From: a virus
Taxonomy: Duplodnaviria > Caudoviricetes
Length of the DNA stretch: 52,409 nt
Strand: one strand, 5' to 3'
Virus record (IMG/VR): IMGVR_UViG_3300021093_000107
Coordinates: 1 to 52,409 of that record
The notes beneath the pieces were generated by a model. The model was not told the DNA's origin. It saw only the letters and a list, made by a program, of their open reading frames with translations, and ran no database searches. Below, one piece after another: positions 4,431-52,329 of this stretch; positions within the stretch are counted from its first letter, which is position 1, and the number at the start of each line of letters is the position of its first letter. Position numbers and translations under genes: made by a program.

Positions 4431-5849
4431 ATGAACTACCCAGCAAAAGAATCCGCACAAGGTTTAGCATCTTTAGGTCGCTACGGCGATACAATGCTAG
4501 TCCATATGAACCCTAAAGAAGTAGCAGGACTTCAAAGTTTAGCTATGGCTCAAGGTAGCTCATTAACTATTAACCCTGATACTGGTATGCCTGAGGCATT
4601 CTTAGGTGGTTTATTTAATTTTGCTGCCCCAATAATAGCTGGATATTTTAAGTTTGATCCTTGGCTTGTGGCGGGTATTATGGGAGGTAAATCTCTTATT
4701 GAAGGCGACGATCCTATCGAAACGGCTATGTCAGCATTTGGTGGTTATAGCGGTGCTAAATTAGGTAGGGGACTACTAGATTTTTCTACACCTTTAAAAG
4801 TGCCTACTGCTGAAGCGAATACATTTGCAGGTACGACTGAAGGTGTAGGTAATATTGATCCATCAAACCTTATGAATGTAGGCCCTAAAGTAGCAGATAC
4901 AACTCCATACAATAAGATAGATAAGATAGCTTCCATAGGATACACAGGTCCAACAGCACCTAACTATAAAGTTCCATCAACTTCAGCAGGTATACAAGGC
5001 GGTATTAAGGTAGATGAGGCTCTTCCTGTAAGCGTTCGAAATATTGGAGCATCAGAGTTTAAAAAACCACAACAAATATCTATTCCTGATGCAACAGAAC
5101 CTGTCACACTTACAGGCAGTTTATCAAAAGCGTTAGAAGACCCTGTAGGTTTTGCAAGACATGTAGGTGAAGGTGATGCTTTAATGGGAGGTGCTAAGAT
5201 TGGTATGTATGCAGCTTCTCCACTTATAGAAGGTATGTTACAACCACCAGAATTTTCAATGGGTAGAAGTGATGATGAGAAATATGTTCCTGGAAGAAGC
5301 TTACAATTAAGCAACGATACAGGTTTAAGACTATTACCTAATTTAAATTTACCTAAAACCGCTAAAGCAGGTGGCATTATTAATTCTTATGCTACTGGTG
5401 GTACAATTCAATCAGGTGGTATTAGAGACTTATATGGTACACCAGATAATCAACCTACCATATCTCCAGGATTAGGAGGATTTGGTTTGGGTCGTCTTAA
5501 TAATCTTGCAGGTGAACAAGCTATGACTCAAGCACAAACATTAGGTTATGCTATGGGTGGTTTAACTGCATTAAAAAGCGGTGGACAATCAGGTGGTTAC
5601 TTAAATGGTGCCGGTGATGGTATGTCAGACTCAATTCCTGCTACAATAGAAGGTAAGCAACCAGCACGTTTGGCAGACGGTGAATTCGTAATACCAGCTG
5701 ATGTTGTTAGTCATTTAGGTAATGGCTCTTCTAAAGCTGGATCAAAAAGATTATATGCGATGCTAGATAAAGTAAGACGTGCACGTACTGGTACTAAAAA
5801 ACAAGGTAAACAAATTAAAGCAGAGAAGTACTTACCAAAAGTAGCATGA
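4431..5849 (+). CDS. Putative internal virion/ejection protein
   Basis: GRYGDTMLVHMNP.EV..INP.TG.PEAF N-terminal module; C-terminal GDGMSDSIPA..ARLADGEFVIPADVVS module; Gly/Ala rich. Confidence 0.65.
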   Translation: MNYPAKESAQGLASLGRYGDTMLVHMNPKEVAGLQSLAMAQGSSLTINPDTGMPEAFLGGLFNFAAPIIAGYFKFDPWLVAGIMGGKSLIEGDDPIETAMSAFGGYSGAKLGRGLLDFSTPLKVPTAEANTFAGTTEGVGNIDPSNLMNVGPKVADTTPYNKIDKIASIGYTGPTAPNYKVPSTSAGIQGGIKVDEALPVSVRNIGASEFKKPQQISIPDATEPVTLTGSLSKALEDPVGFARHVGEGDALMGGAKIGMYAASPLIEGMLQPPEFSMGRSDDEKYVPGRSLQLSNDTGLRLLPNLNLPKTAKAGGIINSYATGGTIQSGGIRDLYGTPDNQPTISPGLGGFGLGRLNNLAGEQAMTQAQTLGYAMGGLTALKSGGQSGGYLNGAGDGMSDSIPATIEGKQPARLADGEFVIPADVVSHLGNGSSKAGSKRLYAMLDKVRRARTGTKKQGKQIKAEKYLPKVA

Positions 5850-7374: not shown

Positions 7375-7376
7375 TT

Positions 7377-8990
7377 ATGAATATCGTTAAACTTCAAAAT
7401 ATGTTACGCGGTGCGCCTGATGAAGCACTTATTAATTATGTTCAAAATCCACAAGGTCAAGTACCTAGTTATTTAGTATTAAGTGAATTACAAAGACGTA
7501 AAGATACACGTGCTAAATACCAAGCTGAAAAAGCTCCAGAAACAAGTGTTGCAGAAGACGTAATACAAGAAGCTCAACCAGGCGGCCTTGCGATGTTAGC
7601 TAAAAACCCTGTCCTCTCTCCAGGTGCTCCTATGTCGCAAGGTGTCGCCGACTTACCTGTACCTGATGATATGTACCAAGATCAAAACTTTGCAGGTGGT
7701 GGTATTGTTGCGTTTGAAGATGGTGGCCCAGTAGCTACATCACGATTTAGTGATTTTTTCTCAGGACTTAGATCTACTAATTTAGCTAAACAAGCTATTA
7801 ATAGACAGATTAATGCGTTGATTTCTGAAAAGGCTAGATTAAAATATGACTATCTAACACCTCTCACACCAGAACAAAAAACTGCACAAGAACAAACTAT
7901 ACCTCAAATTGATAAAATGATTGCAGACTTAGAGGCACAGAAAAAAACTATAGGTAGTTCGCCGACGGTAGAAAAACCAAGACTAGCTCCTCCAGGTCTT
8001 GCTTCATTAGATACTGGATCAAGTGCTAGGTTTACTAATGAAGATATTGCTAATATGGAGCCTTATAGAAAGGCCGCAATGCCTCGCATGGATACCATGC
8101 CTACTAAACCTACTGAAGATATAACTAAACCTATGCCAGGACCTGCAGTAACTCCTAAAGATGCGGGCATCAGTAGCTTATTAGAAGACACAGAAGGCTT
8201 AGCTGAGAAGAGAGCGGAACGATATAGAAAGATGGTAGGCGAAGATCCTGAACGTGCTAACCTAGAAAAACTTGTTAAGAAATATGAGACAGGTGCTGGT
8301 GAACAAGAACGTATGGCACCATGGATGGCATTAGCTAGAGCTGGCTTTACTATGGCTGGTGGTAAATCACCATTTGCAATTCAGAACTTATCTGAAGGGG
8401 CTGTTGCAGGACTTACTGACTACGTAATAGCTAAAGATAGACTTGACAAACTTACTGAAAGACAAATTGATATTAAAACTAAAATGCAACAAGCTAAACG
8501 CGCTGAAGATATTGCAGCGGCTACATACGGGCTTAATAGTGAAGCTGCGGTTGAAGCACGTAATGCTCAAGTTAAACTTAAAGATATGGAAGAGAAGAAT
8601 GCATTCGCTCGTACGAAGTATTCAGCTGACGTATCAACTAAGAATGCTATGATTGCAGCGGCTAGGAAATCTGACTTTGAAACCTTTTTAAGTCTTGCTG
8701 AAAAAGATGAGGATAATTACAAAACTGTCAAAGATAAAGACGGCACCGTACGTAAAGTATTTGATGTAAGTAAAGTTACACAAGCGTATAAATCATTTAG
8801 TGGTTCAAGTGGACTAGATGATGATAAATTAGCAATTATTTGGGATAATAGTAAATATGATAAAGATTTTATTAAAAAATATCCTACTCCCGCAGATTAT
8901 ATATTAGACCAAAGAGCTAAACTTTCTGGTAGTGCAGCTCCGTCTGCTTCCGCTTCTTCCTCACAGTGGGGCCCTTTAAAAGTTAAATAA
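7377..8990 (+). CDS. Putative DNA ejection protein
   Basis: 537 aa, helical; lies between ejection-type genes. Confidence 0.55.
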   Translation: MNIVKLQNMLRGAPDEALINYVQNPQGQVPSYLVLSELQRRKDTRAKYQAEKAPETSVAEDVIQEAQPGGLAMLAKNPVLSPGAPMSQGVADLPVPDDMYQDQNFAGGGIVAFEDGGPVATSRFSDFFSGLRSTNLAKQAINRQINALISEKARLKYDYLTPLTPEQKTAQEQTIPQIDKMIADLEAQKKTIGSSPTVEKPRLAPPGLASLDTGSSARFTNEDIANMEPYRKAAMPRMDTMPTKPTEDITKPMPGPAVTPKDAGISSLLEDTEGLAEKRAERYRKMVGEDPERANLEKLVKKYETGAGEQERMAPWMALARAGFTMAGGKSPFAIQNLSEGAVAGLTDYVIAKDRLDKLTERQIDIKTKMQQAKRAEDIAAATYGLNSEAAVEARNAQVKLKDMEEKNAFARTKYSADVSTKNAMIAAARKSDFETFLSLAEKDEDNYKTVKDKDGTVRKVFDVSKVTQAYKSFSGSSGLDDDKLAIIWDNSKYDKDFIKKYPTPADYILDQRAKLSGSAAPSASASSSQWGPLKVK

Positions 8991-37509: not shown

Positions 37510-38151
37510 ATGAACCAAGAAGTACAACAAAATCAAGAAGATACCGTAAACCCGGTTGTGTTGATGCCTCACATAGAGGAAGGCGTACCCATACCTAGCA
37601 ATTCTAAAGAAGCACTACCCCCGTTAAACAATGAAGACCAAGTAAGACTAAGATCAAAAACGTATAAAGAGCTTGCTGATTTAACTGGGCATGACATAGA
37701 CCCGACGCCTGAACAAAGAGAAGCTGCGGAAAAGACTATGAAAGAAATGATTAAGAACCCAGATAAAAAACAAGATTTAAAGAAGTATGCGAACGATCAA
37801 GTGGCATACCTAGGAGGCTTAGTTGATGTATATAACCATGCGATTGTAGATGACCTAGCAGAATTGAAGCAGTACGTGGTAGCTAAATTAGTTTACGCGG
37901 TAGAACATACCCAGAACGTGAAAGAACAAATCGCGGCTCTACGCAGTATAGGCGAGGTAGACGGTGTTGATGCCTTCAAGAAAAAGTCTGAAGTGATACA
38001 CAAACATGAAACCATGGAAGAAGTTGAGAAAGAACTTATCACGATGTTGACGGAGTTAAAACAAAAAGTACTTAATAAAAGAGAAACTGACACTATAGAC
38101 GCAGAACTTATCGACGATGACAGAAACGACAGCACCCAAGATAACGAGTAG
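37510..38151 (+). CDS. Putative terminase small subunit
   Basis: Directly precedes and overlaps terL; helical; AL..IG...GVD.F motif. Confidence 0.55.
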   Translation: MNQEVQQNQEDTVNPVVLMPHIEEGVPIPSNSKEALPPLNNEDQVRLRSKTYKELADLTGHDIDPTPEQREAAEKTMKEMIKNPDKKQDLKKYANDQVAYLGGLVDVYNHAIVDDLAELKQYVVAKLVYAVEHTQNVKEQIAALRSIGEVDGVDAFKKKSEVIHKHETMEEVEKELITMLTELKQKVLNKRETDTIDAELIDDDRNDSTQDNE

Positions 38152-39672: not shown

Positions 39673-39951
39673 ATGAATAAGAGGATACCAAGAAAAAAGG
39701 GACAACCTGCAAATTCAAAAAAACATTCTGATTTATACACAGATGAAAACCCTAAAGGAACTATTCATGGTTTAAAATTTGCTACAGCTAAAGATGCTAA
39801 AGCAAGTGTATCTAAAATTAAAAATAGTGGTCGATCTCACGCACATAAAATACAAGCAGCAATTGCCATGGAACAAAGAGCAAGAGTCATGGGTAAACCA
39901 GAAGCAGCAAAAGCATATAGAAAATTTATTAATATAAATAAAAAGTCATAA
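39673..39951 (+). CDS. Small basic hypothetical protein
   Basis: AAGGA RBS; HSDLYTDENPKGTI...HKIQAAIAMEQRA. Confidence 0.65.
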   Translation: MNKRIPRKKGQPANSKKHSDLYTDENPKGTIHGLKFATAKDAKASVSKIKNSGRSHAHKIQAAIAMEQRARVMGKPEAAKAYRKFININKKS

Positions 39952-39961
39952 AGGATAACAT

Positions 39962-42409
39962 ATGGCAAACAATATAGATAAAAGTTTAAACCAAGCACCT
40001 AAAGGTATTGAAGAGTTAGCAAGTGCACAACCGGATTTAAGTATTGAAATTGAAAATCCTGAAAGTGTGACACTTGATGATGGAAGCATGGAAATTACAA
40101 TTGTACCAGGTAAAGAAACTAATGATGAGTTTAATGCCAACCTTGCAGAAGATATGGATGAAGGTCAGCTTACTGAATTATCAGGTGATTTAGTAGGTGA
40201 ATATGATGCTGATATTAATTCAAGAAAAGATTGGTTAAATACATATGTAGATGGTTTAGAGTTATTAGGTTTAAAAGTAGAAGATAGAACAGAACCATGG
40301 CCCGGTTCATGTAATGTGTATCACCCTCTTATGACAGAAGCGTTAGTTAAGTTTCAAGCTGAAACTATGATGGAAACATTTCCAGCGGCGGGTCCAGTTA
40401 AAACAGTCATTATTGGTAAGCAAACAAAAGAAAAAGAAGACGCTGCCGAACGTGTAAAAGATGACATGAATTATCAGCTCACGGACATGATGCCTGAATA
40501 TAGACCCGAACATGAACGCATGTTGTGGGGTTTAGGTTTATCTGGTAACTCATTTAAAAAAGTTTACTACGACCCTAACATGGAACGCCAAGTATCAATG
40601 TATGTTCCTTCAGAAGATATTGTAGTGCCTTATGGTGCATCTAATTTAGAAACAGCAGAGCGTGTTACTCACGTGATGAGAAAGACTAAAAATGAATTAC
40701 ATAAATTACAAGTAGCAGGTTTTTATCGTGATGTAGATTTAGGGGAACCATATTCAGATATTGATGAAGCTGAAAAACAAATTGCAGAGAAGTTAGGATT
40801 TAATCCTACAGAGGATGACAGATATAAAATCTTAGAAATGCATGTTAATATTAATTTAGACAATGGTGATAGTGAAGATGACATAGCTTTACCTTATGTA
40901 ATAACAATTGAAAAAGGCACAGGTACTATATTAGCAATTCGTCGTAATTGGAACCCAGACGACAAACTAAAACAAAAACGTCAGCACTTTGTTCACTATG
41001 GATATATTCCTGGATTTGGGTTTTATTGTTTTGGATTAATTCACTTAATAGGTGCTTTCGCTAAATCAGGCACAATGATTCTTCGTCAGTTAGTAGATGC
41101 AGGCACTCTTTCTAACTTACCAGGTGGTATGAAGTCACGAGGTTTACGAATTAAAGGTGATGACACTCCAATCGCACCAGGTGAATGGAGAGACGTTGAT
41201 GTACCATCAGGCGCTATCCGAGACAACATTTTACCTCTACCATATAAAGAACCAAGTCAAGTATTACAGGGTTTGATGAATCAAATTATTGAAGAAGGTA
41301 GACGTTTTGCATCAGCTGCTGATATGAAAGTATCAGATATGTCTGCTCAGTCTCCAGTAGGTACTACATTAGCAATATTAGAAAGAACCCTCAAAGTAAT
41401 GAGTGCTGTACAAGCGCGTATTTATTATGCAATGAAACAAGAGTTTAAATTACTTAAAGGCATTATTCGTGATTACACTCCAACAGAGTATTCATACGAA
41501 CCTGAAGTAGGTGATCGACGTGCTAAACAATCTGACTATGATAATGTAGATGTTATACCGGTAAGTGATCCTAATGCTGCAACGATGTCACAAAAAGTTG
41601 TGCAATATCAAGCTGTAATGCAAATGGCTCAAGCAAACCCACAAATCTATGATCAAGTAGAACTTAATAAACAAATGCTTGAAGTGTTAGGTGTTAAAAA
41701 TATAGGTAAGTTAATTCCTAATGCCGATGATCAAAAGCCAAAAGATCCTGTGACAGAAAATATGAATATTATCAACGGTAAACCTGTTAAAGCATTTATT
41801 TATCAAGATCATCAAGCCCATATTCAAGTACATATGACAGCGATGCAAGATCCAAAAATTTTACAACTTGTAGGACAAAATCCACAAGCAGGCTTAATTC
41901 AAGCTGCAGCCATGGCGCATATTAATGAGCACGTAGCGTTTGAATATAGACGTCAACTTGAAGAACAATTAGGTGTTCCACTTCCTAAATTTAATGAAAC
42001 ATTGCCCGAAGATGTAGAGTTTGAATTATCTAAGGTTATGGCTGAAGCGGCTAAAAAACTTGCTACTAAATCAGCAGTTGAAGTACAACAAGAGCAAGCT
42101 CAACAACAAGCTCAAGACCCAATCATTCAAATGCAACAACAAGAGTTAGCATTAAAAGCACAAGACCTACAAATCAAACAACAAAAAACTATGGCTGATA
42201 TTGCAATTGATAAAGGCAAATTAGAATTAGAGAAAGCTAAAATGGAAGTAGAAACAAAATTATCTGGGATGGAGTTTGCTGCTAAAGCAACACTAGATAA
42301 AAATAAATTAGATGTACAAAAAGCTATTGACAGTGTAAAAATTGGTTTAGATGCAACAGTTAAAAAACATGAAATTGAAAATCAAAGGAATCAAAAACTA
42401 CAGGAGTAA
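39962..42409 (+). CDS. Portal protein
   Basis: 815 aa after terL; long Q-rich C-terminal coiled coil as in P22-like portals. Confidence 0.85.
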   Translation: MANNIDKSLNQAPKGIEELASAQPDLSIEIENPESVTLDDGSMEITIVPGKETNDEFNANLAEDMDEGQLTELSGDLVGEYDADINSRKDWLNTYVDGLELLGLKVEDRTEPWPGSCNVYHPLMTEALVKFQAETMMETFPAAGPVKTVIIGKQTKEKEDAAERVKDDMNYQLTDMMPEYRPEHERMLWGLGLSGNSFKKVYYDPNMERQVSMYVPSEDIVVPYGASNLETAERVTHVMRKTKNELHKLQVAGFYRDVDLGEPYSDIDEAEKQIAEKLGFNPTEDDRYKILEMHVNINLDNGDSEDDIALPYVITIEKGTGTILAIRRNWNPDDKLKQKRQHFVHYGYIPGFGFYCFGLIHLIGAFAKSGTMILRQLVDAGTLSNLPGGMKSRGLRIKGDDTPIAPGEWRDVDVPSGAIRDNILPLPYKEPSQVLQGLMNQIIEEGRRFASAADMKVSDMSAQSPVGTTLAILERTLKVMSAVQARIYYAMKQEFKLLKGIIRDYTPTEYSYEPEVGDRRAKQSDYDNVDVIPVSDPNAATMSQKVVQYQAVMQMAQANPQIYDQVELNKQMLEVLGVKNIGKLIPNADDQKPKDPVTENMNIINGKPVKAFIYQDHQAHIQVHMTAMQDPKILQLVGQNPQAGLIQAAAMAHINEHVAFEYRRQLEEQLGVPLPKFNETLPEDVEFELSKVMAEAAKKLATKSAVEVQQEQAQQQAQDPIIQMQQQELALKAQDLQIKQQKTMADIAIDKGKLELEKAKMEVETKLSGMEFAAKATLDKNKLDVQKAIDSVKIGLDATVKKHEIENQRNQKLQE

Positions 42410-42413
42410 TTAA

Positions 42414-42608
42414 ATGGACCAAACGCTAGAGCTATTATTGTCTCGAATAGACGATCAGCGCAAACAAGTAATTTTTAATTTAGGAGACGGAGCAGCAAAA
42501 GATTATGCTTCGTACACTAACATGGTCGGATATATACGAGGTCTATCCGTCGCAGAAAGTATCATTAAAGACCTTGCACAAAGAATGGAGACATTTGAAG
42601 ATGAGTGA
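42414..42608 (+). CDS. Small conserved head-module protein
   Basis: AGGAG RBS; Y...VG.IRGL motif. Confidence 0.65.
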   Translation: MDQTLELLLSRIDDQRKQVIFNLGDGAAKDYASYTNMVGYIRGLSVAESIIKDLAQRMETFEDE

Positions 42609-43044
42609 CATACTCACACGGGATAATACTTTGGTAGATGCACAAGGTCGACCAATTATTATTCCAACAATAGATGAAGTAGAAACGGAAGAAATTCCTA
42701 TTGAAGAAAGAGGATTACAGCTTCCAGAACCAAAAGGATATAAGATTTTATGTGCAATTCCTGAAGCATCGGAAACATATGAAAGTGGTTTAGTTAAAGC
42801 GGGACAAACAAAACACATTGAAGAACATTCAACAGTAGTTTTATTTGTGGTAAAAGTAGGCGATTTAGCTTACAAAGACGAGTCAAGATTTCCGACTGGT
42901 CCATGGTGTAAAGAGGGTGATTTTGTTTTGACACGTGCATACGCAGGTACAAGATTTAAAATCCACGGAAGAGAATTCCGCATTATTAACGACGATACTG
43001 TAGAAGGTGTGGTGCAAGATCCACGCGGCTACACTCGCGCATAG
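42601..43044 (+). CDS. groES: GroES/Cpn10-like co-chaperonin
   Basis: P.GYKIL, V.KVG..AY, WCKEGD.V....YAG......E.RIINDD.V.GVV. Confidence 0.85.
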   Translation: MSDILTRDNTLVDAQGRPIIIPTIDEVETEEIPIEERGLQLPEPKGYKILCAIPEASETYESGLVKAGQTKHIEEHSTVVLFVVKVGDLAYKDESRFPTGPWCKEGDFVLTRAYAGTRFKIHGREFRIINDDTVEGVVQDPRGYTRA

Positions 43045-43053
43045 GAGAAAGTT

Positions 43054-44085
43054 ATGGCTGACGTAAAAGATGGAGATATTGTTTTTGAATATCCAGATGA
43101 TGACGAAATACCAGCGGCTAAACCTGCTGAAGAAAAAGAAGTAGAGGCAAAAGCTGAACCTAAAAATGAAGTTAAGGTAGAAGCCAAGGTTAAAGATGAT
43201 GATATTGACCTTGAAATAGAAGACGATACACCACCACAAGATAAAGGTCGCGAGCCTTTACCAAAAGATGTGGTAGAAGAATTAGAAAAAGATACGCTTG
43301 ATGATTACTCTGAACGAGTTAAACAACGTATGGCGCAGCTTAAAAAAGTTTGGCATGACGAAAGACGCGCTAAAGAAGCAGCTGACAGAGAAAGACAAGA
43401 AGCAATTAGATTTGCTCAGCAAATTGCCGAGGAAAATAAGAAGTTAAAAACAACTTTAAGTTCTGGCGAAGCAACTTACATTGAGACACTTAAAGCAGGA
43501 TTAGAGAATCAGCTTAATTTAGCTAAACGCGATTATCGTGAGGCATATGATTCAGGTAATACTGAACAAATTATTGAAGCTCAACAAAAAATGAATGATG
43601 CTCAAATGCGATTGTCTCAAGCTCAAAGCTATAAGCCTCAATACGAAAAAACTTTACAGGAAGCAGAAAATCCTGTATATATACCACAAAATGAACAACC
43701 TTCATACAAACCAGACGACAAAGCCCTAAAATGGCAAGAGAAAAACGAATGGTTTGGTAAAGATGAAGAAATGACCAGCTTAGCGCTAGGTCTACATGAG
43801 AAATTAGTTAGAAGTGGAATCAGTCCTACATCTGATGAATATTATCGTCGTATAGATAGTACGATGCAAAAACGATTCCCAGAATACTTTGGGGATGCAA
43901 CGCTAGACGAGGAAAAACCCGCCGAGCGCACTAAACCTTCGACTGTAGTTGCTCCGGCAACGCGTAGTACCGCGCCTAAAAAAGTACGATTAACAAAAAC
44001 ACAAGTAGCGTTAGCCAAGAAATTTGGTATAACACCGGAACAATATGCAAGAGAAACTTTAAAATTGGAGAATGCAAATGGATAA
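43054..44085 (+). CDS. Putative scaffolding protein
   Basis: Acidic N-terminus, coiled coil, W...N.WFG, C-terminal LT..Q..LAKK.G.T.EQYA. Confidence 0.7.
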   Translation: MADVKDGDIVFEYPDDDEIPAAKPAEEKEVEAKAEPKNEVKVEAKVKDDDIDLEIEDDTPPQDKGREPLPKDVVEELEKDTLDDYSERVKQRMAQLKKVWHDERRAKEAADRERQEAIRFAQQIAEENKKLKTTLSSGEATYIETLKAGLENQLNLAKRDYREAYDSGNTEQIIEAQQKMNDAQMRLSQAQSYKPQYEKTLQEAENPVYIPQNEQPSYKPDDKALKWQEKNEWFGKDEEMTSLALGLHEKLVRSGISPTSDEYYRRIDSTMQKRFPEYFGDATLDEEKPAERTKPSTVVAPATRSTAPKKVRLTKTQVALAKKFGITPEQYARETLKLENANG

Positions 44086-44527
44086 TAAAAGATTAGATCG
44101 TGATTTAGAAGTACGAGAAGAATTTCAACGCGCAGATAGCTGGAAACCCGCCTCACTATTACCTGAGTTTAAAAAGGTACCTGGTTGGGCATATCGCTGG
44201 ATTCGTACTAGTGTTTTAAACGATGCTGATAATCTAAATGTTTCTTCCAAAATGCGTGAAGGATGGGAACCCGTTAAATTAGCGGACCACCCTGAAATGA
44301 AAATAATGGTTGACCAAAATGCTCGGTTTAAAGACGGAGTTGAAATTGGTGGACTATTATTATGCAAGATACCAGAAGAGTTTGTTGCTCAACGTAAGGC
44401 TCACTATGAAAACATAGCAAAACAACAAGCCGATGCAGTGGACAACAGCTTTATGAAACAAAACGATCCGCGTATGCCTCTTTTTTCAGAAAAGAAAGCT
44501 ACAACGTCGTTTGGTAAAGGTAATTAA
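44078..44527 (+). CDS. Conserved head-module protein
   Basis: W.P.S.LP...G..YRWIR..REGWEPV..IGGLLLCK. Confidence 0.7.
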   Translation: MDNKRLDRDLEVREEFQRADSWKPASLLPEFKKVPGWAYRWIRTSVLNDADNLNVSSKMREGWEPVKLADHPEMKIMVDQNARFKDGVEIGGLLLCKIPEEFVAQRKAHYENIAKQQADAVDNSFMKQNDPRMPLFSEKKATTSFGKGN

Positions 44528-44551: not shown

Positions 44552-45160
44552 ATGGCTTATCCAACCGTAGACGCTCCGTATGGCTTAAAACCAGTTAATT
44601 TAATTGGCGGTCAAGTTTTTGCGGGGTCAACTCGCTTAATGGAAATTGCAGACGGCTATGCTACAAACATTTTCTATGGCGATTTAGTAAAACGTGTTTC
44701 CGATGGAACAATTGAAAAAGACACAGGTACAACTACAGCTACACCTTGCGGTGTGTTTTTAGGCGTGCAGTTCACAAATGGTTCTACCGGTCAAGTACAA
44801 CAACAACAGTTTTACCCAGCTTCACAATCAATTAAATCAGGCACTCAAATTTTTGCAGTCGTTGCAGATGATCCTGATACATTATTCCAAGTAGTTTCTT
44901 GTTCTTCTACAACAACTGTTGCTGCTATGGGTAAATCTGCGATTGGTAATAACATCGCTTTAATTCAAAATGCTGGATCAACTGTTACTGGTGATTCAAA
45001 AGTAGCAATTGACGAAGGAACACAAGCTACTACTAACACTCTACCTATTCGTATTATTGATGTGGTTAGAGATACTGCAACTGGCACTGATTCATTTGTT
45101 GAGTTTATCGTTAAGATTAATGCAACTATGCATCAGTATAACAACTCAACCGGCGTATAA
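44552..45160 (+). CDS. Putative head decoration/minor capsid protein
   Basis: APYGLKPV, IFYGDLV, DDPD..F; beta-rich; directly before the capsid gene. Confidence 0.6.
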   Translation: MAYPTVDAPYGLKPVNLIGGQVFAGSTRLMEIADGYATNIFYGDLVKRVSDGTIEKDTGTTTATPCGVFLGVQFTNGSTGQVQQQQFYPASQSIKSGTQIFAVVADDPDTLFQVVSCSSTTTVAAMGKSAIGNNIALIQNAGSTVTGDSKVAIDEGTQATTNTLPIRIIDVVRDTATGTDSFVEFIVKINATMHQYNNSTGV

Positions 45161-45172
45161 GGAGAATAACAC

Positions 45173-46084
45173 ATGGCTATTTCACGCGCACAGCTCCTTA
45201 AAGAGCTACTCCCAGGACTTAACGCTTTGTTTGGTCTAGAGTATAAACGTTACGGCGAAGAACACAAAGAAATCTACGAAACAGAGACTTCAGAACGTTC
45301 TTTCGAAGAAGAAACAAAACTATCAGGCTTTTCAGCAGCACCTGTTAAAAACGAAGGCTCAGCCATCGCTTATGACAATGCGCAAGAAGCTTTTACTGCT
45401 CGATATAATCATCAAACTATTGCTCTTGGTTTCTCCCTCACAGAAGAAGCTGTAGAAGATAACTTGTATGACACATTATCAGCACGTTACACAAAAGCTT
45501 TAGCTCGCGCTATGGCTTACACAAAACAAGTTAAGGCTGCCGCAGTTCTTAATAATGGCTTTACTGCCGGCGTAAATGCTGGTGGTGATGGTGTAGCATT
45601 ATTTAGTACAGCTCACCCACTTGTTAGTGGTGGCACAAACAGCAACACTCAATCAACTCCAACTGACTTAAATGAAACTGCACTTGAAAATGCGGTTATT
45701 CAAATTGCAGCTTGGACAGATGAGCGTGGGCTATTAATTGCTGCTCAACCTCGTAAATTAGTTGTTGCTCCAAGTAATCAATTCGTTGCAACTCGTTTGC
45801 TCGAAACTGAATTACGTGTATCAACAGCTGACAACGATATCAACGCAATTAAGAACAATGGATCAATCCCAGAGGGTTATACAATTAACCATTACTTGAC
45901 AGATTCTGATGCATATTTCTTAACAACTGATGTACCTAACGGCATGAAACACTTTGTCCGTACACCGTTATCAACCTCTATGGATGGTGACTTTGATACA
46001 GGCAACGTTCGTTACAAAGCCCGTGAACGTTATTCATTTGGATTCTCAGATCCACTTGGTATGTTTGGTTCACCAGGCGCTTAA
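45173..46084 (+). CDS. Major capsid protein (Mu gpT-like)
   Basis: MAISRAQL.KEL.PGLNALFG.EY, DG..LFST.HP, KARERYSFG.SDP; strong RBS; followed by a terminator. Confidence 0.9.
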   Translation: MAISRAQLLKELLPGLNALFGLEYKRYGEEHKEIYETETSERSFEEETKLSGFSAAPVKNEGSAIAYDNAQEAFTARYNHQTIALGFSLTEEAVEDNLYDTLSARYTKALARAMAYTKQVKAAAVLNNGFTAGVNAGGDGVALFSTAHPLVSGGTNSNTQSTPTDLNETALENAVIQIAAWTDERGLLIAAQPRKLVVAPSNQFVATRLLETELRVSTADNDINAIKNNGSIPEGYTINHYLTDSDAYFLTTDVPNGMKHFVRTPLSTSMDGDFDTGNVRYKARERYSFGFSDPLGMFGSPGA

Positions 46085-46302: not shown

Positions 46303-46343
46303 TGGACTGGGTAACAGACTGTTATTAATTTAGCGATAGATTA

Positions 46344-46367
46344 GGGGGTTTACAGCCTCCTTTTTTA
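46344..46367 (+). terminator. Probable terminator after pqqA, overlapping a TTTACA..TATACT promoter-like site
   Basis: GGGGGT-TTACA-GCCTCC followed by a T-run. Confidence 0.55.
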
Positions 46368-46397
46368 TGTTATACTGCTTTGAACTTAGGAGGTGTT

Positions 46398-46820
46398 ATG
46401 CCACTCAAAGACAAAGCAGCACGCAAAACCTACCATAAAAAATACCATGCAAAGTGGTACGAAGAAAATAAAGAAAAACGCCTTAAACAAATATCAGACT
46501 ATGATAAAACGCAGCCTAAAGAGTGGCGAAAAGCCATAAGTAGAAAATGTAATTTAAAACTCAGATATAATTTAACTCCCCAAGAATACGAAACTAAATT
46601 AGCTAGCCAAGATTATAAATGTGCATTATGTGGTAAAGACGCAAACGACAATATAAGACGAGGCAAAGTAGAACCCTTATGTGTAGATCATTGCCACACT
46701 ACTAAAAAATTAAGAGATTTATTATGTTTTCACTGTAATTCTTTTCTAGGACACGCCAAAGATAATCCAAAAGTTTTATCAAAAGCCGCACAATATCTCA
46801 TAGATTACCAACAAAAATAA
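46398..46820 (+). CDS. Endonuclease VII-family (His-Me finger) free-standing nuclease
   Basis: Y.LT..EY....Q...CALC, VDHCH.T...R.LLC..CN..LG...D; AGGAGG RBS before ATG at 46398. Confidence 0.88.
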   Translation: MPLKDKAARKTYHKKYHAKWYEENKEKRLKQISDYDKTQPKEWRKAISRKCNLKLRYNLTPQEYETKLASQDYKCALCGKDANDNIRRGKVEPLCVDHCHTTKKLRDLLCFHCNSFLGHAKDNPKVLSKAAQYLIDYQQK

Positions 46821-47315: not shown

Positions 47316-47600
47316 ATGATGCAAACTGATATATTATCCACACATTTAAATGCTGATGGAGTAGTAGCTGCGTACCCTGTACGCGTCAAAGGATATCAAA
47401 TTAAACCTGGCGGTACTGCAGGACAAATTGATTTTTATGATAATGCTTCCGCTGCTTCTGGCACTATTAGATTATCACTAGACATTACAACTAACACTGC
47501 AGTTATTTCTACAATTCTTCCAGGTGAAGGTATTCGTTTTAACAATGGTGTTTATGTTGATTTACCTACCGCTGCTGGTATAACAGTATTCTATGGCTAG
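47316..47600 (+). CDS. Small virion protein
   Basis: MQTD...PGEGIRF..GVY.......TVFYG. Confidence 0.65.
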   Translation: MMQTDILSTHLNADGVVAAYPVRVKGYQIKPGGTAGQIDFYDNASAASGTIRLSLDITTNTAVISTILPGEGIRFNNGVYVDLPTAAGITVFYG

Positions 47601-47853
47601 TAAGAAAAAAGGTGTATCCTTAGCAGTCGGACGTGGTGAGAAGCTCCCTGTGTCTAAAGGCGCAGGTCTCACTGCTAAAGGTCGTGCTAAATATAATGCA
47701 GCTACTGGGTCAAACCTCAAAGCTCCTCAACCACAAGGCGGCGCTCGTAAAAGATCGTTTTGTGCTAGGATGTCTGGTATGCCCGGTCCTATGAAAGATG
47801 AAAAAGGTAGACCTACTCGTAAGGCTGCTTCTTTAAAAAGGTGGAAATGCTAA
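47593..47853 (+). CDS. Small basic protein (DUF6321-like)
   Basis: GL.AKGRA.YN...GSNLKAP...R..SFCARM.G......L..W.C. Confidence 0.65.
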   Translation: MASKKKGVSLAVGRGEKLPVSKGAGLTAKGRAKYNAATGSNLKAPQPQGGARKRSFCARMSGMPGPMKDEKGRPTRKAASLKRWKC

Positions 47854-48042: not shown

Positions 48043-48279
48043 ATGAAAGCTTTCATAGAAAAAATATTTAAATTTAAGAAGCAAAAACAAAAGGAAATAT
48101 TAGATGAAATTATTCATACAGAAGTTATACAAAAAAACAAAGAAATACTTAGCAAACAAATTGAAACAAGTATTAAACAACACGTAGAAAAAGTAAAAGA
48201 AAATTTTAAAAAACCTGGACATTATTTTCCCGACTGTAATTGTTTTAAATGTGTAAGATGGAGAAATCAAAATGCCTAG
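48043..48279 (+). CDS. Hypothetical protein with C-terminal H..C.C..C
   Basis: ORF packed between neighbours. Confidence 0.5.
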   Translation: MKAFIEKIFKFKKQKQKEILDEIIHTEVIQKNKEILSKQIETSIKQHVEKVKENFKKPGHYFPDCNCFKCVRWRNQNA

Positions 48280-48703
48280 TAAATCAAAGAAACAACATAA
48301 CTTAATGGCAGCGGTAGCTAATAATCCTAAGTTTGCTAGAAAAACTGGGATACCACAATCAGTAGGAGAAGAATTTATGAAAGCGGATAAAGGCAAGAAG
48401 TTTGCAGGGGGTGGTTTGTATGCCAATATTGCTGCAAAAAAACGACGTATCGCTGCGGGGTCTGGTGAAAAGATGCGTAGTGTAGGATCTAAAGGAGCTC
48501 CTAAAAAAAGTGATTTTGCTAATGCTGCAAAAACAGCGTCCTATAAAAATGGGGGTAAAACGGATCTTAAACAAGATAAAACTATGGTTAAAAAAGCTGT
48601 AGGCATGCATGAGAAACAACTTCATGGTGGTAAAAAATCAAACTTAGCTGCTCTTAAAAAAGGTGGTATGACTAAAAGTAAAACAAAAGGAAGGATTTGC
48701 TAA
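48272..48703 (+). CDS. Lys-rich modular protein (GG-motif cluster)
   Basis: FAGGG, YKNGG and LKKGG separate distinct modules. Confidence 0.7.
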   Translation: MPSKSKKQHNLMAAVANNPKFARKTGIPQSVGEEFMKADKGKKFAGGGLYANIAAKKRRIAAGSGEKMRSVGSKGAPKKSDFANAAKTASYKNGGKTDLKQDKTMVKKAVGMHEKQLHGGKKSNLAALKKGGMTKSKTKGRIC

Positions 48704-48705
48704 TC

Positions 48706-49116
48706 ATGGATAAAGACGCTGAAAAAAGATATAGAGAATTATCACCTAAAGAAAAGTATGATTCAGCAATAAGAGCTAGAGAAGAACCTTACGATCCTTT
48801 ACAGACAGTTAAAGATTTAATTAAAGAAAAAGAAGATAAACCTGCATCACCTAAACCTGAACCTAAAAAAGAATTAAAAAAAGCATATAAAAAAGGTGGC
48901 CAAGTTGTTAAAACATTAAAAAATGCTGGGTTTTATAACAAAGGTAAAACTAAGTCGGAACGAGAAAAGATTGTTAGTAAAGTAACAACAAAACCCCAAC
49001 GGATAGGAATGGTTGAAAAAATGTTTTCAGCTAAAAAAATGGCTAAAGGTGGATTAGCATCTAAACGTGCAGATGGCTGTGCTATTAAAGGTAAAACAAG
49101 AGGCAAAATTGTTTAA
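48706..49116 (+). CDS. Lys-rich modular protein (GG-motif cluster)
   Basis: YKKGG, MAKGG; C-terminal KRADGCAIKGKTRGKIV. Confidence 0.7.
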   Translation: MDKDAEKRYRELSPKEKYDSAIRAREEPYDPLQTVKDLIKEKEDKPASPKPEPKKELKKAYKKGGQVVKTLKNAGFYNKGKTKSEREKIVSKVTTKPQRIGMVEKMFSAKKMAKGGLASKRADGCAIKGKTRGKIV

Positions 49117-49781
49117 TGTATTTAACAAGTAATATTCCTTATTTTAAATGTTGGATTAGAAAAGAATTTACAAATGGGCATCAAAATTATCATGGAGAAT
49201 ACGTACACGCATTGGCAGTTGCGGTTACAACTATTCCTGATCGATGTCTTAGTTTTCAAGTAATATTTACTGGTTGTGAAGCAGATGACGGCAGTCAACC
49301 AAATGTACATGGTGGAGCAATGTGGGCTAGAATGCCTATTACTGCGTTGGTCGGGGATATACCACTTGAAGAGTGGCCTGACAGAATGCAAACACATTTA
49401 GCGCAACCTTGGGATTGTAGTTCGTACAATCATAGTATTATTAGAATTGACCGAGCACAACCATCTCCATGGTTATGTAAGATTAATAATGAGTTTTACA
49501 CCGGAAGGTATTTGTTTACGGTTGATTATGCTGAAAGCGAAGTTTCAGAAGATCCAGCACAGCATAAACAAAGTCATATACTTATACTAACTGATGCGGG
49601 TAAATGGACAGGCAACATAGTGGCATTACCAAATAATCGAGTGCGAGTTACCAGTCCGGCATATTGGGTTACTGGACAAGGAGCACCTGATTTTAAACCA
49701 AGCCAATGGATTCATTGTGCGGAGCAAGACGATTCGTATATGGACCCAGAGGTTACTTTTAATAATTTATACAAGGAGTAG
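49116..49781 (+). CDS. Globular enzyme-like protein of unknown function
   Basis: 221 aa, rich in W/H/C/D (QPWDCSS, QHKQSH, LPNNRV); unlike its basic neighbours. Confidence 0.75.
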   Translation: MYLTSNIPYFKCWIRKEFTNGHQNYHGEYVHALAVAVTTIPDRCLSFQVIFTGCEADDGSQPNVHGGAMWARMPITALVGDIPLEEWPDRMQTHLAQPWDCSSYNHSIIRIDRAQPSPWLCKINNEFYTGRYLFTVDYAESEVSEDPAQHKQSHILILTDAGKWTGNIVALPNNRVRVTSPAYWVTGQGAPDFKPSQWIHCAEQDDSYMDPEVTFNNLYKE

Positions 49782-49846
49782 TAACATGATGAAAAAAGGA
49801 TATGCAGCAGGTGGTAACATGATGAAAAAAGGTTATGCAGCAGGTG
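49781..49846. repeat. 33-bp tandem duplication
   Basis: GTAACATGATGAAAAAAGG(A/T)TATGCAGCAGGTG twice. Confidence 0.9.
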
Positions 49847-50058
49847 GGATGCCAATGGTTATGAAAGACGGTAAAGAAGTACCTGCTTTTGCGGCCGATG
49901 GTAAAGGTAAAATGAAACACGGCGGTAAAGTTAAAAAAGCTGCACCTAAAAAAATGATGGGTGGGGGCATGATGGCTAAAATGAAATCTGGTGGCGGTGT
50001 ATCTAAACGCGCAGATGGCGTTGCTAAAAAAGGTAAAACAAAAGGAAAGATGATTTAA
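49786..50058 (+). CDS. Lys/Gly/Met-rich protein (GG-motif cluster)
   Basis: AAGGAG RBS; YAAGG twice, MKHGG, MMGGG, MKSGG; C-terminal KRADGVAKKGKTKGKMI. Confidence 0.75.
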   Translation: MMKKGYAAGGNMMKKGYAAGGMPMVMKDGKEVPAFAADGKGKMKHGGKVKKAAPKKMMGGGMMAKMKSGGGVSKRADGVAKKGKTKGKMI

Positions 50059-50414
50059 TGAGAGCCTCCCGTGGTATGGGTGCTATAAACCCTGCTAAGA
50101 TGCCCAAAGGCACCGTTAAAAAACGTCGTGATAACACAGACTTTACCGAATATAAAGAAGGTGGCATTATAAAAAAGAAAAAGGATGTTATGTTAGATAA
50201 ATTACAACGCGCTCCTATTTCTAAAACGCTTGGTAAAAAAGAAGGCGGTAAGGTGAATGCAGCAGGTAACTATACAAAGCCTGGACTACGCAAACGTATT
50301 TTTAACAGTGTAAAAGCTGCAGCAACACACGGTACAGCCGCGGGTCAATGGTCTGCAAGAAAAGCACAACTTGTTGCTAAAAAATATAAAGCTGCAGGTG
50401 GCGGATACAAGTGA
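50058..50414 (+). CDS. Basic protein carrying the N-terminal half of a DUF5872-like domain
   Basis: NYTKP.LR.RI......G...GQWSARKAQ..A..YK..GGGY. Confidence 0.7.
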   Translation: MRASRGMGAINPAKMPKGTVKKRRDNTDFTEYKEGGIIKKKKDVMLDKLQRAPISKTLGKKEGGKVNAAGNYTKPGLRKRIFNSVKAAATHGTAAGQWSARKAQLVAKKYKAAGGGYK

Positions 50415-50758
50415 GTTGGTCAGATAAGTATAAGAAGTCTATTGACTGTAAGAATCCTAAAGGGTTTTCTCAAAAGGCTCATTGTGCTGGACGTAAAAAG
50501 AAAATGGCAAGTGGTGGCTTAGCTAAGTCTCAACAATCCCTAAAATCATGGGGTGAACAAAAGTGGAGAACTAAGTCTGGTAAAAAGTCTAGCGAAACAG
50601 GAGAGCGATACTTACCAGAAAATGCTATTAAAGCATTAAGCCCACAAGAGTATGCGGCTACCACAAAAGCTAAAAGAGCAGGTAAAGCTAAAGGGCAACA
50701 GTTTGTAGCTCAACCTAAATCTATTAAACAAAAAGTAAAACCTTTTAGAAAAATTTAA
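50411..50758 (+). CDS. Basic protein carrying the C-terminal half of a DUF5872-like domain
   Basis: Q.SL..W..Q.W.TK.G......RYLP..A...L...E...T..AKR, after an N-terminal SIDC.NPKGFSQKAHC module. Confidence 0.7.
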   Translation: MSWSDKYKKSIDCKNPKGFSQKAHCAGRKKKMASGGLAKSQQSLKSWGEQKWRTKSGKKSSETGERYLPENAIKALSPQEYAATTKAKRAGKAKGQQFVAQPKSIKQKVKPFRKI

Positions 50759-50760
50759 TT

Positions 50761-51690
50761 ATGGTAAATAGAACCTCAGGAACCACTAGTTTTAACTTAG
50801 ATTTAAATAACCTTGTTGAAGATGCGTTTGAGCGTTGTGGACAAGAGTTACGTACTGGGTATGATCTTCGCACTGCACGACGCTCACTAAATTTAATGAC
50901 AATTGAATGGGCTAATCGTGGTATTAACTTGTGGACTGTAGAACCAGGTCAAATTAGTTTAGAACAAGATCGTTTTATGTATCCATTGCCAGTAGACACA
51001 ATTGATTTGTTAGACATGGTAACACGCACCGGCACAGGACAAAATCAACAAGACATTAATATTAACCGTATATCTGAATCAACTTATATTACTATACCTA
51101 ATAAAAATGCTACAGGTCGTCCTATCCAAGTGTGGATTAATAGACAAAGTGGTCAAGAGAATTCTACTACGATAACCACTGCTGAAGCGTTAGATGCTAC
51201 AGAAACAACCATTACTTTATCTTCTACTGTAGGTTTAGCACAATTTGGTTTTATTAAAGTAGATAATGAAACTATTCAGTATGGTGATATAAGTGGTAAT
51301 GATTTAATAAATTGTGTACGAGGCGTTAACTATACAACTGCAGCTACACATACTACGGCTACTAGCGTTTATGTACAAAACTTACCCACAGTAAACGTGT
51401 GGCCAGCCCCTGATCAAAGTAATTTTTATACTTTTGTATATTACAGACTAAGACGTATTCAAGATGGTGGTAACGGTGTAGCTGTGCAAGATATTCCGTT
51501 TAGATTTATTCCTTGCATGGTTGCAGGATTAGCTGCGTATTTAAGTATGAAGTTACCTAATGTTACACCTGATAGAATTCAAATGTTACGAGCAGATTAT
51601 GAAACAGCGTTTCAATTAGCAGCTGACGAAGATCGTGAAAAAGCACCTTTAAGATTAGTGCCTAGAGATATGTTCTATTATAGGAACTAA
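50761..51690 (+). CDS. Putative head-tail adaptor/tail tubular protein
   Basis: AFERCG...GYDLRTARRSLN....WANRG.NLWT; P.RF.PC.VAGLA.Y; Thr-rich insert. Confidence 0.6.
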   Translation: MVNRTSGTTSFNLDLNNLVEDAFERCGQELRTGYDLRTARRSLNLMTIEWANRGINLWTVEPGQISLEQDRFMYPLPVDTIDLLDMVTRTGTGQNQQDININRISESTYITIPNKNATGRPIQVWINRQSGQENSTTITTAEALDATETTITLSSTVGLAQFGFIKVDNETIQYGDISGNDLINCVRGVNYTTAATHTTATSVYVQNLPTVNVWPAPDQSNFYTFVYYRLRRIQDGGNGVAVQDIPFRFIPCMVAGLAAYLSMKLPNVTPDRIQMLRADYETAFQLAADEDREKAPLRLVPRDMFYYRN

Positions 51691-52134: not shown

Positions 52135-52329
52135 ATGGCTTATAAATCAGGTGCTGACGGCGTTGCTAAAAAAGGTAAAACCGAAGGCCATAATTTAGGT
52201 GATACAGGATCAAGCGTAGAAATTAAAAAAGGTCCTATACATGCAGGTTCAAAAGGTGGCAAAACCAATGTTGATATGAAAAGTATGGGCAGAGGTTTAG
52301 CTAAAATTGCAGCACAGAAAAAAGGATAA
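52135..52329 (+). CDS. Small basic protein
   Basis: AGGAG RBS; ADGVAKKGKT.G motif shared with the cluster proteins. Confidence 0.65.
   Translation: MAYKSGADGVAKKGKTEGHNLGDTGSSVEIKKGPIHAGSKGGKTNVDMKSMGRGLAKIAAQKKG

Follow-up and report, generated by a model that had tools for sequence, protein, structure and literature searches.

A Gly-Gly pentapeptide at the module joints of lysine-rich late mini-proteins and in ejection-type proteins of a tailed phage

A pentapeptide ending in Gly-Gly recurs throughout a cluster of five Lys-rich late ORFs (A, B, D, E and F) in the window, the whole 52,409-nucleotide stretch analysed (IMG/VR record IMGVR_UViG_3300021093_000107), which looks like a complete marine podophage genome of about 52 kb. 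The pattern is genuine and is under selection at the protein level. Our preferred reading, to which we assign a probability of about 0.45, is that these ORFs encode DNA-associated mini-proteins of the head or cargo, shuffling and mostly disordered, in which the motif acts as a shared joint or recognition handle.

The cluster is flanked by head genes and an SU10-type adaptor gene; its genes share one strand direction and are tightly packed with these neighbours through start/stop overlaps, with a further protein, C, embedded between B and D. The phage also encodes an HK97-type capsid, a scaffold-like ORF and, within the head block, a Cpn10-like protein. A scan for promoters and terminators gave no signal above shuffles within the cluster, the sole feature being a terminator-like hairpin 3' of the capsid gene. 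The products considered here are:

4431..5849, + strand: ej1, ejection-type protein, 472 aa, with AKAGG, YATGG, YAMGG (5547-5561) and LKSGG
7377..8990, + strand: ej2, ejection-type protein, 537 aa, with the double motif FAGGG-IVA-FEDGG (7689-7727) past a conserved N-domain
39673..39951, + strand: small basic protein encoded between terminase and portal, 92 aa (K+R 0.25), without the motif
47593..47853, + strand: stand-alone basic DUF6321 mini-protein, 86 aa (K+R 0.26), without the strict motif here
48272..48703, + strand: protein A, 143 aa, M1-joint-M2-joint-M3-joint-tail, the joints being FAGGG (48401-48415, residue 44), YKNGG (48542-48556, residue 91) and LKKGG (48653-48667, residue 128)
48706..49116, + strand: protein B, 136 aa, with a unique acidic/basic N-part, a middle part and a conserved C-terminal tail; joints YKKGG (48886-48900) and MAKGG (49039-49053)
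49116..49781, + strand: protein C, 221 aa, acidic, a highly conserved marine-phage protein
49786..50058, + strand: protein D, 90 aa, with five to six motifs
50058..50414, + strand: protein E, 118 aa, a basic N-part bearing YKEGG (50151-50165), a KKEGG joint (50235-50249) and module M5 ending GGGYK
50411..50758, + strand: protein F, 115 aa, a Cys-containing N-module (residues 1-31), a MASGG joint (50504-50518) and module M6
52135..52329, + strand: protein G, 64 aa, basic, with the tail-type element ADGVAKKGKT at its N-terminus, SKGG and module M13

The ATG at 48706 is most likely the start of B, and D most likely begins at the ATG at 49786, directly after the stop of the 221-aa ORF, rather than at the GTG at 49717.

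The motif was counted as [YFMLAK]-[AKME]-x-G-G (reader motif) and in the strict form [YFML][AKME]xGG. All instances listed in the first-pass annotation for A, B, D, E, F, 4431-5849 and 7377-8990 were recovered, and the C-terminus of E carries an additional KAAGG/AAGGG that was absent from that list. The 602 aa of the five basic ORFs hold 16 reader motifs against 4 in the 14,595 aa of 69 other ORFs (2.66 and 0.03 per 100 aa, respectively, with 0.59 for the two ejection-type ORFs), and 13 other basic ORFs (K+R >= 0.18) have none in 1,141 aa. The frequency also exceeds composition, a comparison set out with the original proposal: within-protein residue shuffles gave a mean of 2.27 reader motifs (maximum 9, against 16 observed) and 0.72 strict motifs (maximum 4, against 12 observed), neither observed count being reached in any of 5000 shuffles. 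Across 80 related loci, strict motifs occur at 1.22 per 100 aa in basic ORFs versus 0.05 in others. Three residues before the first Gly, Met is commonest in these loci (203 of 540) and Tyr occurs in 65 of 540, while Lys is commonest at four of the five remaining upstream positions; residues after the Gly-Gly in basic mini-proteins are mostly A/K/M, V/A/M and K. The resulting consensus is K-K-x-[M/Y/F]-[A/K]-x-G-G-[A/K/M]-[V/A/M]-K. The motif glycines are encoded by 17 GGT, 7 GGC, 3 GGG and 1 GGA codons; this varied choice points to selection on the peptide and rules out a DNA-level recombination signal at the motif.

The ORFs proved to be modular, as proposed, with bounds that PHROG profiles and stand-alone homologues define independently. 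In A, modules M1 (residues 1-43), M2 (48-90) and M3 (96-127) are followed by a short basic tail with a terminal Cys. Residues 1-43 correspond to phrog_16759 (profile 1-43 of 58, E 4e-20) and residues 48-90 to phrog_16028 (profile 5-47 of 50, E 2e-16); M1 is 74-77% identical to phiKZ gp165.1, in which it occurs alone. Residues 60-118 of E correspond to phrog_17747 (profile 6-63 of 63, E 2e-24), and this module, M5, stands alone in HTVC035P gp26 and lies behind LKKGG in HMO-2011 gp63. Residues 36-114 of F correspond to phrog_14910 (profile 2-80 of 80, E 4e-33), and stand-alone M6 proteins start MALAKSQ, the exact point at which F resumes past MASGG. In A, E and F the PHROG envelopes thus stop at the motif, and stand-alone or differently fused homologues agree, placing the motif at module junctions as had been supposed. 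Where M2, M5 and M6 are not N-terminal, a motif lies no more than 14 aa upstream in 14 of 14 distinct contexts, compared with a fraction of 0.33-0.42 for random positions (M2 and M5); it precedes M5 in all 10 copies that are not N-terminal. BLAST HSP ends, in contrast, are not clearly enriched near a motif, with fractions of 0.47 on the right (0.51 at random) and 0.50 on the left (0.36 at random), values confounded by the repeat-rich proteins.

The C-terminal tail of B, ASKRADG-x-A-x-KGKT-x-GK, is preceded by the motif in 12 of 15 non-N-terminal contexts in related loci, behind many different N-terminal parts. It also closes D, which reads MMKKGYAAGG twice, M11 (PAFAADG core), MKHGG, MMGGG, MKSGGG and then the B-type tail; the N-terminal unit of D is a 33-bp tandem DNA duplication (49781-49847, 97% matching). 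Among the best 120 of 986 metagenome relatives, D-family proteins carry on average 5.7 motifs and 98 stop 2-4 residues past the last Gly-Gly, and no match to D was found in cultured phages by tblastn with the low-complexity filter on. Relatives also include tandem arrays of 12-residue units, every unit terminated by Gly-Gly, with a final two-residue cap (KV).

Homologous modules recombine at the Gly-Gly sites in related phages, in line with the expectation of the first-pass annotation. A 58-aa protein of the related locus L012 (6662-6835) joins M3 to M13 through FAKGG, its residues 3-26 aligning with M3 of A and its residues 32-54 with residues 39-61 of G, so that in the window the two modules lie in separate proteins. 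Other relatives have triple fusions (e.g. P0394) of the form M1-FKSGG-M2-MKKGG-DUF6321, and DUF6321 is a gene of its own in the window, where 47593-47853 passes Pfam PF19846 with 81.4 bits against a gathering cut-off of 28.5 (E 7.7e-23). The module at 39673-39951 is found within the basic cluster of relatives (homologues L064 2100-2402 and L070 2755-3045). Elsewhere the modules recur as genes of their own, fused in a different order or at the ends of larger phage proteins, and the content and order of the cluster differ widely over the 80 related loci.

The pentapeptide is common to the basic ORFs and the ejection-type proteins. Taken by themselves, ej1 and ej2 show a modest enrichment (P about 0.01-0.02), and the case for them is made by conservation in homologues rather than by enrichment in the window. 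In ej1, YAMGG and LKSGG lie immediately upstream of a widely conserved C-terminal domain (GDGMSD-x-IPA...); at least one motif is found within 75 aa upstream of this domain in 51 of 51 distinct homologues, and at least two in 44 of 51. The ej2 island is retained in 18 of 18 distinct homologues, its columns being 0.8-0.9 conserved against 0.1-0.5 for the flanks, and the I-V-x-F after the Gly-Gly is conserved as strongly as the Gly-Gly itself.

Protein C has homologues at no fewer than 600 places in IMG/VR and 1175 metagenome proteins, in none of which a Pfam domain was found; those of cyanomyophages carry the annotation PurM or ferredoxin. Its AF2 model reached a pLDDT of 87.6 with the deeper alignment (32.5 with a shallow one). 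Foldseek against the PDB gave weak matches only, to Tudor/Agenet/SH3-like barrels (E >= 0.011, TM <= 0.37), BFVD returned only uncharacterised viral proteins, a PDB profile search found nothing significant and ESM Atlas gave no usable match. Structure prediction of C together with D (score 0.00, no controls, partner pLDDT below 50) speaks neither for nor against a contact between them. An ORF with at least three motifs adjoins C in 50 of 65 loci (29 upstream, 21 downstream), all from related phages; the HTVC027P homologue of C comes after the DNA polymerase, distant from the motif-bearing ORFs of that phage, and an obligate link between C and the motif was dropped on these grounds. The same separation, together with a fold that is not protease-like, speaks against C as the protease.

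The preferred reading treats the cluster as fast-evolving late genes for small Lys/Met/Gly-rich, largely unstructured proteins. These would be bead-like strings of portable mini-modules, each some 10-60 residues long, with the motif both joining and terminating modules and with arrays expanding through tandem duplication and then reshuffling at the motif. We infer that the mini-proteins enter the head as polycations associated with the DNA, or as cargo, and exit together with the DNA, and that the motif may dock to a hypothetical head, scaffold or portal component or serve as a hinge with a hydrophobic contact. Residence in the head is suggested by the position of the cluster between head-associated genes and the SU10-type adaptor. 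Likewise, GAP32_317 and 121Q gp51 begin with M1 (phrog_22033, phrog_25121), both being deposited as virion structural proteins; GAP32 gp317 is unmentioned in the CBB paper. In HTVC027P the motif-bearing basic ORFs lie between post-terminase long ORFs (gp41-gp43, hypothetical) and a GroES-like gene upstream of the capsid gene, and in BUCT555 an M1 protein lies between a post-terminase long ORF and the major capsid gene. Against head residence, stand-alone M5, M6 and DUF6321 genes of HTVC035P and HMO-2011 are found near lysis and metabolic genes, and phiKZ gp165.1 has no structural annotation.

Those neighbourhoods, with DUF6321 in T7-like cyanophages, are what would be expected if the proteins stayed outside the virion as late host-directed or nucleic-acid-binding factors (acting on nucleoid, RNA or ribosome), with the motif serving that role. 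The 74-77% identity that M1 of this marine phage shows with its counterparts in phiKZ-like jumbo phages points the same way, such extreme conservation across unrelated phages suggesting a universally conserved target. However, the cluster invariably lies within the head-to-adaptor block in this lineage, the motif is shared with ejection-type proteins and M1 heads the GAP32 and 121Q proteins deposited as virion structural, and we regard a role outside the virion as improbable. An origin of the motif as a passive joint, an evolutionary by-product of mini-gene fusion read by no partner, is also unlikely, if somewhat less so. Here, loss of a stop codon would fuse neighbours and keep the Met-Ala/Lys-Lys-Gly leader of the downstream gene, and the low-complexity Lys/Gly/Met units would then grow by slippage. 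The N-termini of stand-alone modules (MAKPG-, MARRG-, MASKKKG-, MAL-) do align with the joints (FAGGG-, MKKGG-, MASGG-), Met is the most frequent residue three before the first Gly, the recent 33-bp duplication yielded two D units, and the cluster varies widely between loci. Such a scar nevertheless leaves unexplained the Tyr/Phe variants, the strict Gly-Gly doublet, the lack of the motif in the 13 other basic ORFs of the genome and its conservation as an island in ej1 and ej2, families that are not basic, across 33-79% identity.

The first-pass annotation had likened the motif to adenovirus and ASFV maturation sites, and this part of its proposal was not borne out. Scanning with Pfam or PHROG profiles, which covered 44 of the 76 ORFs (all but 32 small early ones), recognised no clan CE or other protease, nor was a prohead protease, a C39 peptidase-transporter or a deubiquitinase-like gene found among them; the three protease candidates, 44072-44527, 44552-45160 and protein C, had no significant PDB sequence match. 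The register differs as well: among 544 Gly-Gly runs in 280 distinct basic proteins, 62 fit [MIL]-x-G-G in any register and 324 have a hydrophobic residue three before the first Gly, one position further from the Gly-Gly than in the adenain consensus. Heads built on a separate scaffold, in the manner of P22 and T7, mature without a protease, and a scaffold-like ORF is present here. Polyprotein-like precursors cut at the motif by an unrecognised phage or host protease, releasing modules like the stand-alone ones and cationic peptides of 10-26 residues that condense DNA or are injected, are therefore doubtful in our estimate, about as much so as the passive joint. They would account for joints lying precisely where units known as stand-alone genes are fused, for the capped 12-residue arrays and for the D-family ends, which resemble polyubiquitin precursors with their cap residue past the last Gly-Gly. 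The conserved hydrophobic residue and basic flanks would likewise imply sequence-specific recognition, and adenovirus is known to have its basic core proteins cut at Gly-Gly-X (available part of PMC4246237). In ej1, by contrast, a conserved folded domain follows the motif directly, and the ej2 residues past the Gly-Gly are as conserved as the doublet, so that a structural or binding element looks likelier than a scissile linker. Stand-alone M2 and DUF6321 moreover retain a Gly at the position of the last Gly of the joint, part of which therefore belongs to the downstream module. In a fuller version the joints would be processing sites, and the mini-genes and 12-residue arrays would be multi-copy precursors like polyubiquitin, capped by 2-3 residues. 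The short cationic peptides cut from them by an unrecognised protease would neutralise and condense the packaged genome, and the site would time the release of ejection proteins; we hold this to be a little less likely again. If true, abundant marine tailed phages would possess a core-peptide system resembling that of adenovirus mu. The evidence agrees better with the milder alternative in the first-pass annotation, a capsid-loading tag, than with a cleavage site.

Small basic proteins inside phage heads are already known, and we know of no described short motif, shared and conserved, that at the same time joins shuffling mini-modules, closes their C-termini and recurs in ejection proteins. 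Our search of the literature for internal, Lys-rich or Gly-Gly proteins of phages turned up no account of the motif, nor any paper on DUF6321, and the available part of the phiRIO-1 paper contains nothing relevant. The mini-protein families are very common in marine viral metagenomes yet wholly unannotated: all 986 metagenome relatives of D are unnamed, and DUF6321 has 4269 longer forms among metagenome proteins. Should the motif prove to be a loading handle, it would show by what rule proteins are chosen for packing and injection, and it would supply a portable tag for filling phage heads with cargo. Should it prove to be a cleavage site, tailed phages would gain their first case of core-peptide maturation like that of adenovirus.

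Several known systems share part of this arrangement. The internal proteins IPI-III of T4 are small and basic, are encoded at a variable locus, are packed and injected with the DNA and share a short address element. That capsid-targeting sequence lies at the N-terminus, from which the prohead protease cuts it off at Leu/Ile-x-Glu, whereas the element described here is internal or C-terminal, repeated and based on Gly-Gly, with no prohead protease found. Polyubiquitin and double-glycine leaders are head-to-tail units or leaders ending in Gly-Gly. The present units, unlike those of polyubiquitin, are 10-26 residues long and lack a beta-grasp fold; their hydrophobic residue is at -5, in contrast to the leader consensus, with hydrophobic residues at -4 and -7 before the Gly-Gly, and no C39 peptidase-transporter is among the scanned ORFs. 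Like the adenovirus core precursors pVII, pre-mu and pVI, which are processed by adenain (AVP), the mini-proteins are small basic proteins of a dsDNA virus with a hydrophobic residue before a Gly-Gly motif. Adenain substrates contain Met-Arg-Gly-Gly or IVGL-G and follow (M/I/L)-X-G-G↓X or (M/I/L)-X-G-X↓G, with a hydrophobic residue at P4 (PMC4246237, in its available part). Here that residue is one position further out, no clan CE (C5/C63/Ulp1-like) protease occurs among the scanned ORFs, and the virus, a tailed phage, has a capsid of HK97 type and a scaffold-like gene. The A-G-G-I-V-A-F of the ej2 island resembles the GroES mobile loop, whose GGIVLTG is the GroEL-binding element (available part of PMC3521247), in a phage that has a Cpn10-like protein. 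Mimicry of this loop by ej2 may be worth pursuing as a lead; the likeness is restricted to ej2, since what follows the Gly-Gly in the basic mini-proteins is mostly not a hydrophobic triplet. Finally, T7 gp6.7 (core) and gp7.3 (nozzle-adaptor scaffold) are small virion proteins active in ejection (PMC11784390, in its available part). The podophage genes described here are similarly small and lie directly upstream of the adaptor gene, a functional analogy only, and the two single proteins of T7 contrast with the cluster found here, whose several genes shuffle and have a motif in common.

Matches to the reader motif, [YFMLAK]-[AKME]-x-G-G, numbered 16 in 602 residues across five basic ORFs, A (48272-48703), B (48706-49116), D (49786-50058), E (50058-50414) and F (50411-50758), 6 in 1,009 residues in the two ejection-type ORFs and 4 in 14,595 residues in the 69 remaining ORFs. 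All instances listed by the first-pass annotation were found in the ORFs quoted. The 13 of the 69 remaining ORFs with K+R ≥ 0.18 contained 0 matches in 1,141 residues, and the motif is therefore not explained by lysine richness alone. When residues were shuffled within each protein (n=5000), the mean count was 2.27 and the maximum 9 versus the 16 observed, with 0/5000 shuffles as high as the observed count; likewise, the strict form, [YFML][AKME]xGG, was observed 12 times against a shuffle mean of 0.72, again with 0/5000 as high.

Eighty related loci were retrieved using the 221-aa product of ORF C (49116-49781) as the query, and across these the strict motif occurs at 1.22 per 100 aa in basic ORFs versus 0.05 in other ORFs. 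The consensus from 540 GG runs is K-K-x-[M/Y]-[A/K]-[K/A]-G-G-[A/K/M]-[V/A/M]-K-K, the third residue before the first G being Met in 203/540 (Met background 6%) and Tyr in 65/540. In more distant relatives, some proteins consist almost wholly of 3-7 copies of a 12-residue unit that closes with GG, followed by a two-residue cap. ORF D has 986 relatives among metagenome proteins, none of them named; the best 120 of these average 5.7 motifs per 121 residues and have a common ordered architecture in which the motif fences every module, the last GG lying 2-4 residues from the C-terminal end in 98/120, often with a terminal Cys. The literature search found no description of the GG motif.

A C-terminal Cys is present in many basic mini-proteins, 1-3 residues past the last Gly-Gly or past a basic tail (48701-48703, 47851-47853; proteins P0280-P0331), the endings being RIC in A, WKC in the DUF6321 ORF and KC, KAC or MAC in D-family members. 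In the cultured pelagiphage HTVC027P, the basic ORFs gp44 and gp47 (locus L088, 28689-28955 and 29545-29883; K+R 0.34-0.35) carry FKKGG, YKVGG and YKKGG.

The first-pass annotation had described modular ORFs with the motif at module boundaries, and the comparison with stand-alone homologues bears this out. PHROG profiles, which derive largely from stand-alone proteins, have ends that coincide with the motif in A, E and F: in A, residues 1-43 and 48-90 lie on either side of FAGGG, ahead of YKNGG; in E, the profile begins at residue 60, at KKEGG; and in F, it begins at residue 36, MASGG being residues 32-36. The mini-module M1 alone constitutes the 58-residue phiKZ gp165.1 (74-77% identical) and a 52-residue protein in BUCT555, mini-modules M5, M6 and DUF6321 each stand alone in HTVC035P, and in HMO-2011 gp63 LKKGG is followed by a fused M5. 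In the related loci, non-N-terminal copies of M2, M5 and M6 have a motif at most 14 residues ahead in 14/14 distinct contexts (for M2 and M5, randomly placed positions give 0.33-0.42), as do M11 in 18/19 (random 0.68) and the tail module in 12/15, these contexts being drawn from related phages and not independent events. Shuffling of homologous modules at GG sites, which the same annotation had named as a check, is seen in two explicit reshufflings that break at the motif. A 58-aa protein of one related locus (L012) reads M3-FAKGG-M13, the window having M3 in A and M13 in a separate ORF (52135-52329), and many relatives read M1-FKSGG-M2-MKKGG-DUF6321, the window having DUF6321 separate (47593-47853) and A running on into M3. 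A naive test of BLAST HSP ends against the motif gave no clear enrichment.

ORF D more plausibly starts at ATG 49786, immediately 3' of the C stop codon, and its start holds a perfect-frame 33-bp tandem duplication (49781-49847, 2.0 copies, 97% matching) that yields both MMKKGYAAGG units. The Gly codons vary at the motif; the constraint is therefore on the peptide. Furthermore, stand-alone N-termini of the form M-A-[K/R]-x-G or M-A-S-K-K-K-G occupy the joint position of fused forms. The last G of the joint is thus contributed by the module that follows it, and a scar left by fusion may account for some joints.

That the motif is nothing but a passive scar or linker would fit this alignment of N-termini with joints, yet we consider it improbable in view of the ejection-type proteins, in which the pentapeptide is shared as the first-pass annotation had claimed. 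In the protein encoded at 4431-5849, a motif stands immediately N-terminal to the conserved C-terminal domain in 51/51 distinct homologues, and at least two motifs are present in 44/51. In that encoded at 7377-8990, the double motif is kept in 18/18 homologues of 33-65% identity, its columns matching the N-terminal domain in conservation, with flanks at 0.1-0.5. This conservation is the strongest sign that the motif is read by something; its role goes beyond that of a flexible linker.

The window has the character of a full phage genome, with late genes on the + strand and replication genes on the - strand, and its DNA and protein matches come from marine phages (pelagiphages, HMO-2011, roseophages).

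69-815, +, tail fibre
1366-1809, +, endolysin
4431-14461, +, ejection-type protein block, taking in a 1823-aa protein with an LPD38 domain
38117-39661, +, terminase
39962-42409, +, portal
42505-43044, +, Cpn10-like protein
43054-44085, +, scaffold-like coiled-coil ORF
45173-46084, +, HK97-type capsid protein
50761-51690, +, SU10-type adaptor

The Cpn10/GroES-like protein (Pfam E 9e-5, residues 80-169) has a 75-residue N-terminal extension, and its gene sits between the portal and scaffold-like genes, as does gp55 in HTVC027P. A terminator-like hairpin with a T-run (46343-46361) lies just 3' of the capsid gene. An endonuclease VII-like gene (46380-46820) comes next, an insertion that separates the capsid gene from the head-associated genes. 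The 1823-aa protein (8990-14461), probably the large injected protein, has its LPD38 'polyvalent protein' domain at residues 1533-1692, a lysozyme-like stretch at 766-894 and only three loose motif matches.

The acidic protein C is conserved among marine phages and very abundant there, with no fewer than 600 IMG/VR places and 1175 metagenome proteins, none of the latter with a Pfam domain; a cyanomyophage gene annotated PurM or ferredoxin is also C. In HTVC027P, the C homologue follows the DNA polymerase, and the motif-bearing basic ORFs lie 3' of the long ORFs that trail terminase, before the GroES-like gene 5' of the capsid gene. Structure prediction gave a confident all-beta model of C (AF2, pLDDT 87.6); its best PDB matches were weak, to Tudor/Agenet/SH3-like barrels, none convincing, its BFVD matches were uncharacterised proteins, and the model lent cleavage no support. 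S103, T135, D137, K151 and H154 are nearly invariant in a diverse alignment, which hints at a putative active or binding site.

Cleavage at the Gly-Gly joints would be expected to leave joints at fusions of units that otherwise stand alone and short caps past the last GG, and both are seen; a host or cryptic protease is a possible cutter. However, no protease family appeared among the Pfam or PHROG matches (44/76 ORFs scanned), and neither the unassigned head-block ORFs (44072-44527 and 44552-45160) nor C had a significant PDB sequence match. Adenain, moreover, has a consensus of Met-Arg-Gly-Gly type (PMC4246237), and only 62/544 GG runs fit that register. We regard cleavage as unlikely. The first-pass observation is borne out and extended; of its interpretation, modularity and a shared motif are supported, and adenovirus-like maturation is not supported.

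In this lineage, the basic ORFs lie packed, starts overlapping stops, in the interval from the head-associated genes to the adaptor gene, and M1 is the N-terminal part of GAP32_317 and 121Q gp51, both deposited as virion structural proteins. In HTVC035P and HMO-2011, stand-alone modules have lysis or metabolic genes as neighbours, which counts against a head location and would suit a non-virion role inside the cell, a role which we judge still less probable than cleavage. Our preferred reading, held tentatively at a probability of about 0.45, is a shuffling cluster of mini-proteins that would be disordered, putatively DNA-associated head components or cargo, the Gly-Gly element serving as their common joint or recognition handle.

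A precedent comes from the podophage T7, in which small virion proteins belong to the core and to the junction of nozzle and adaptor (PMC11784390); the mini-protein genes of the window lie 5' of the adaptor. In the protein encoded at 7377-8990, the double motif (residues 105-117, 7689-7727; loci L170-L187) holds the conserved island A-G-G-I-V-A-F. It resembles the GroES mobile loop that binds GroEL, GGIVLTG as given in PMC3521247, whereas the basic mini-proteins are unlike that loop.
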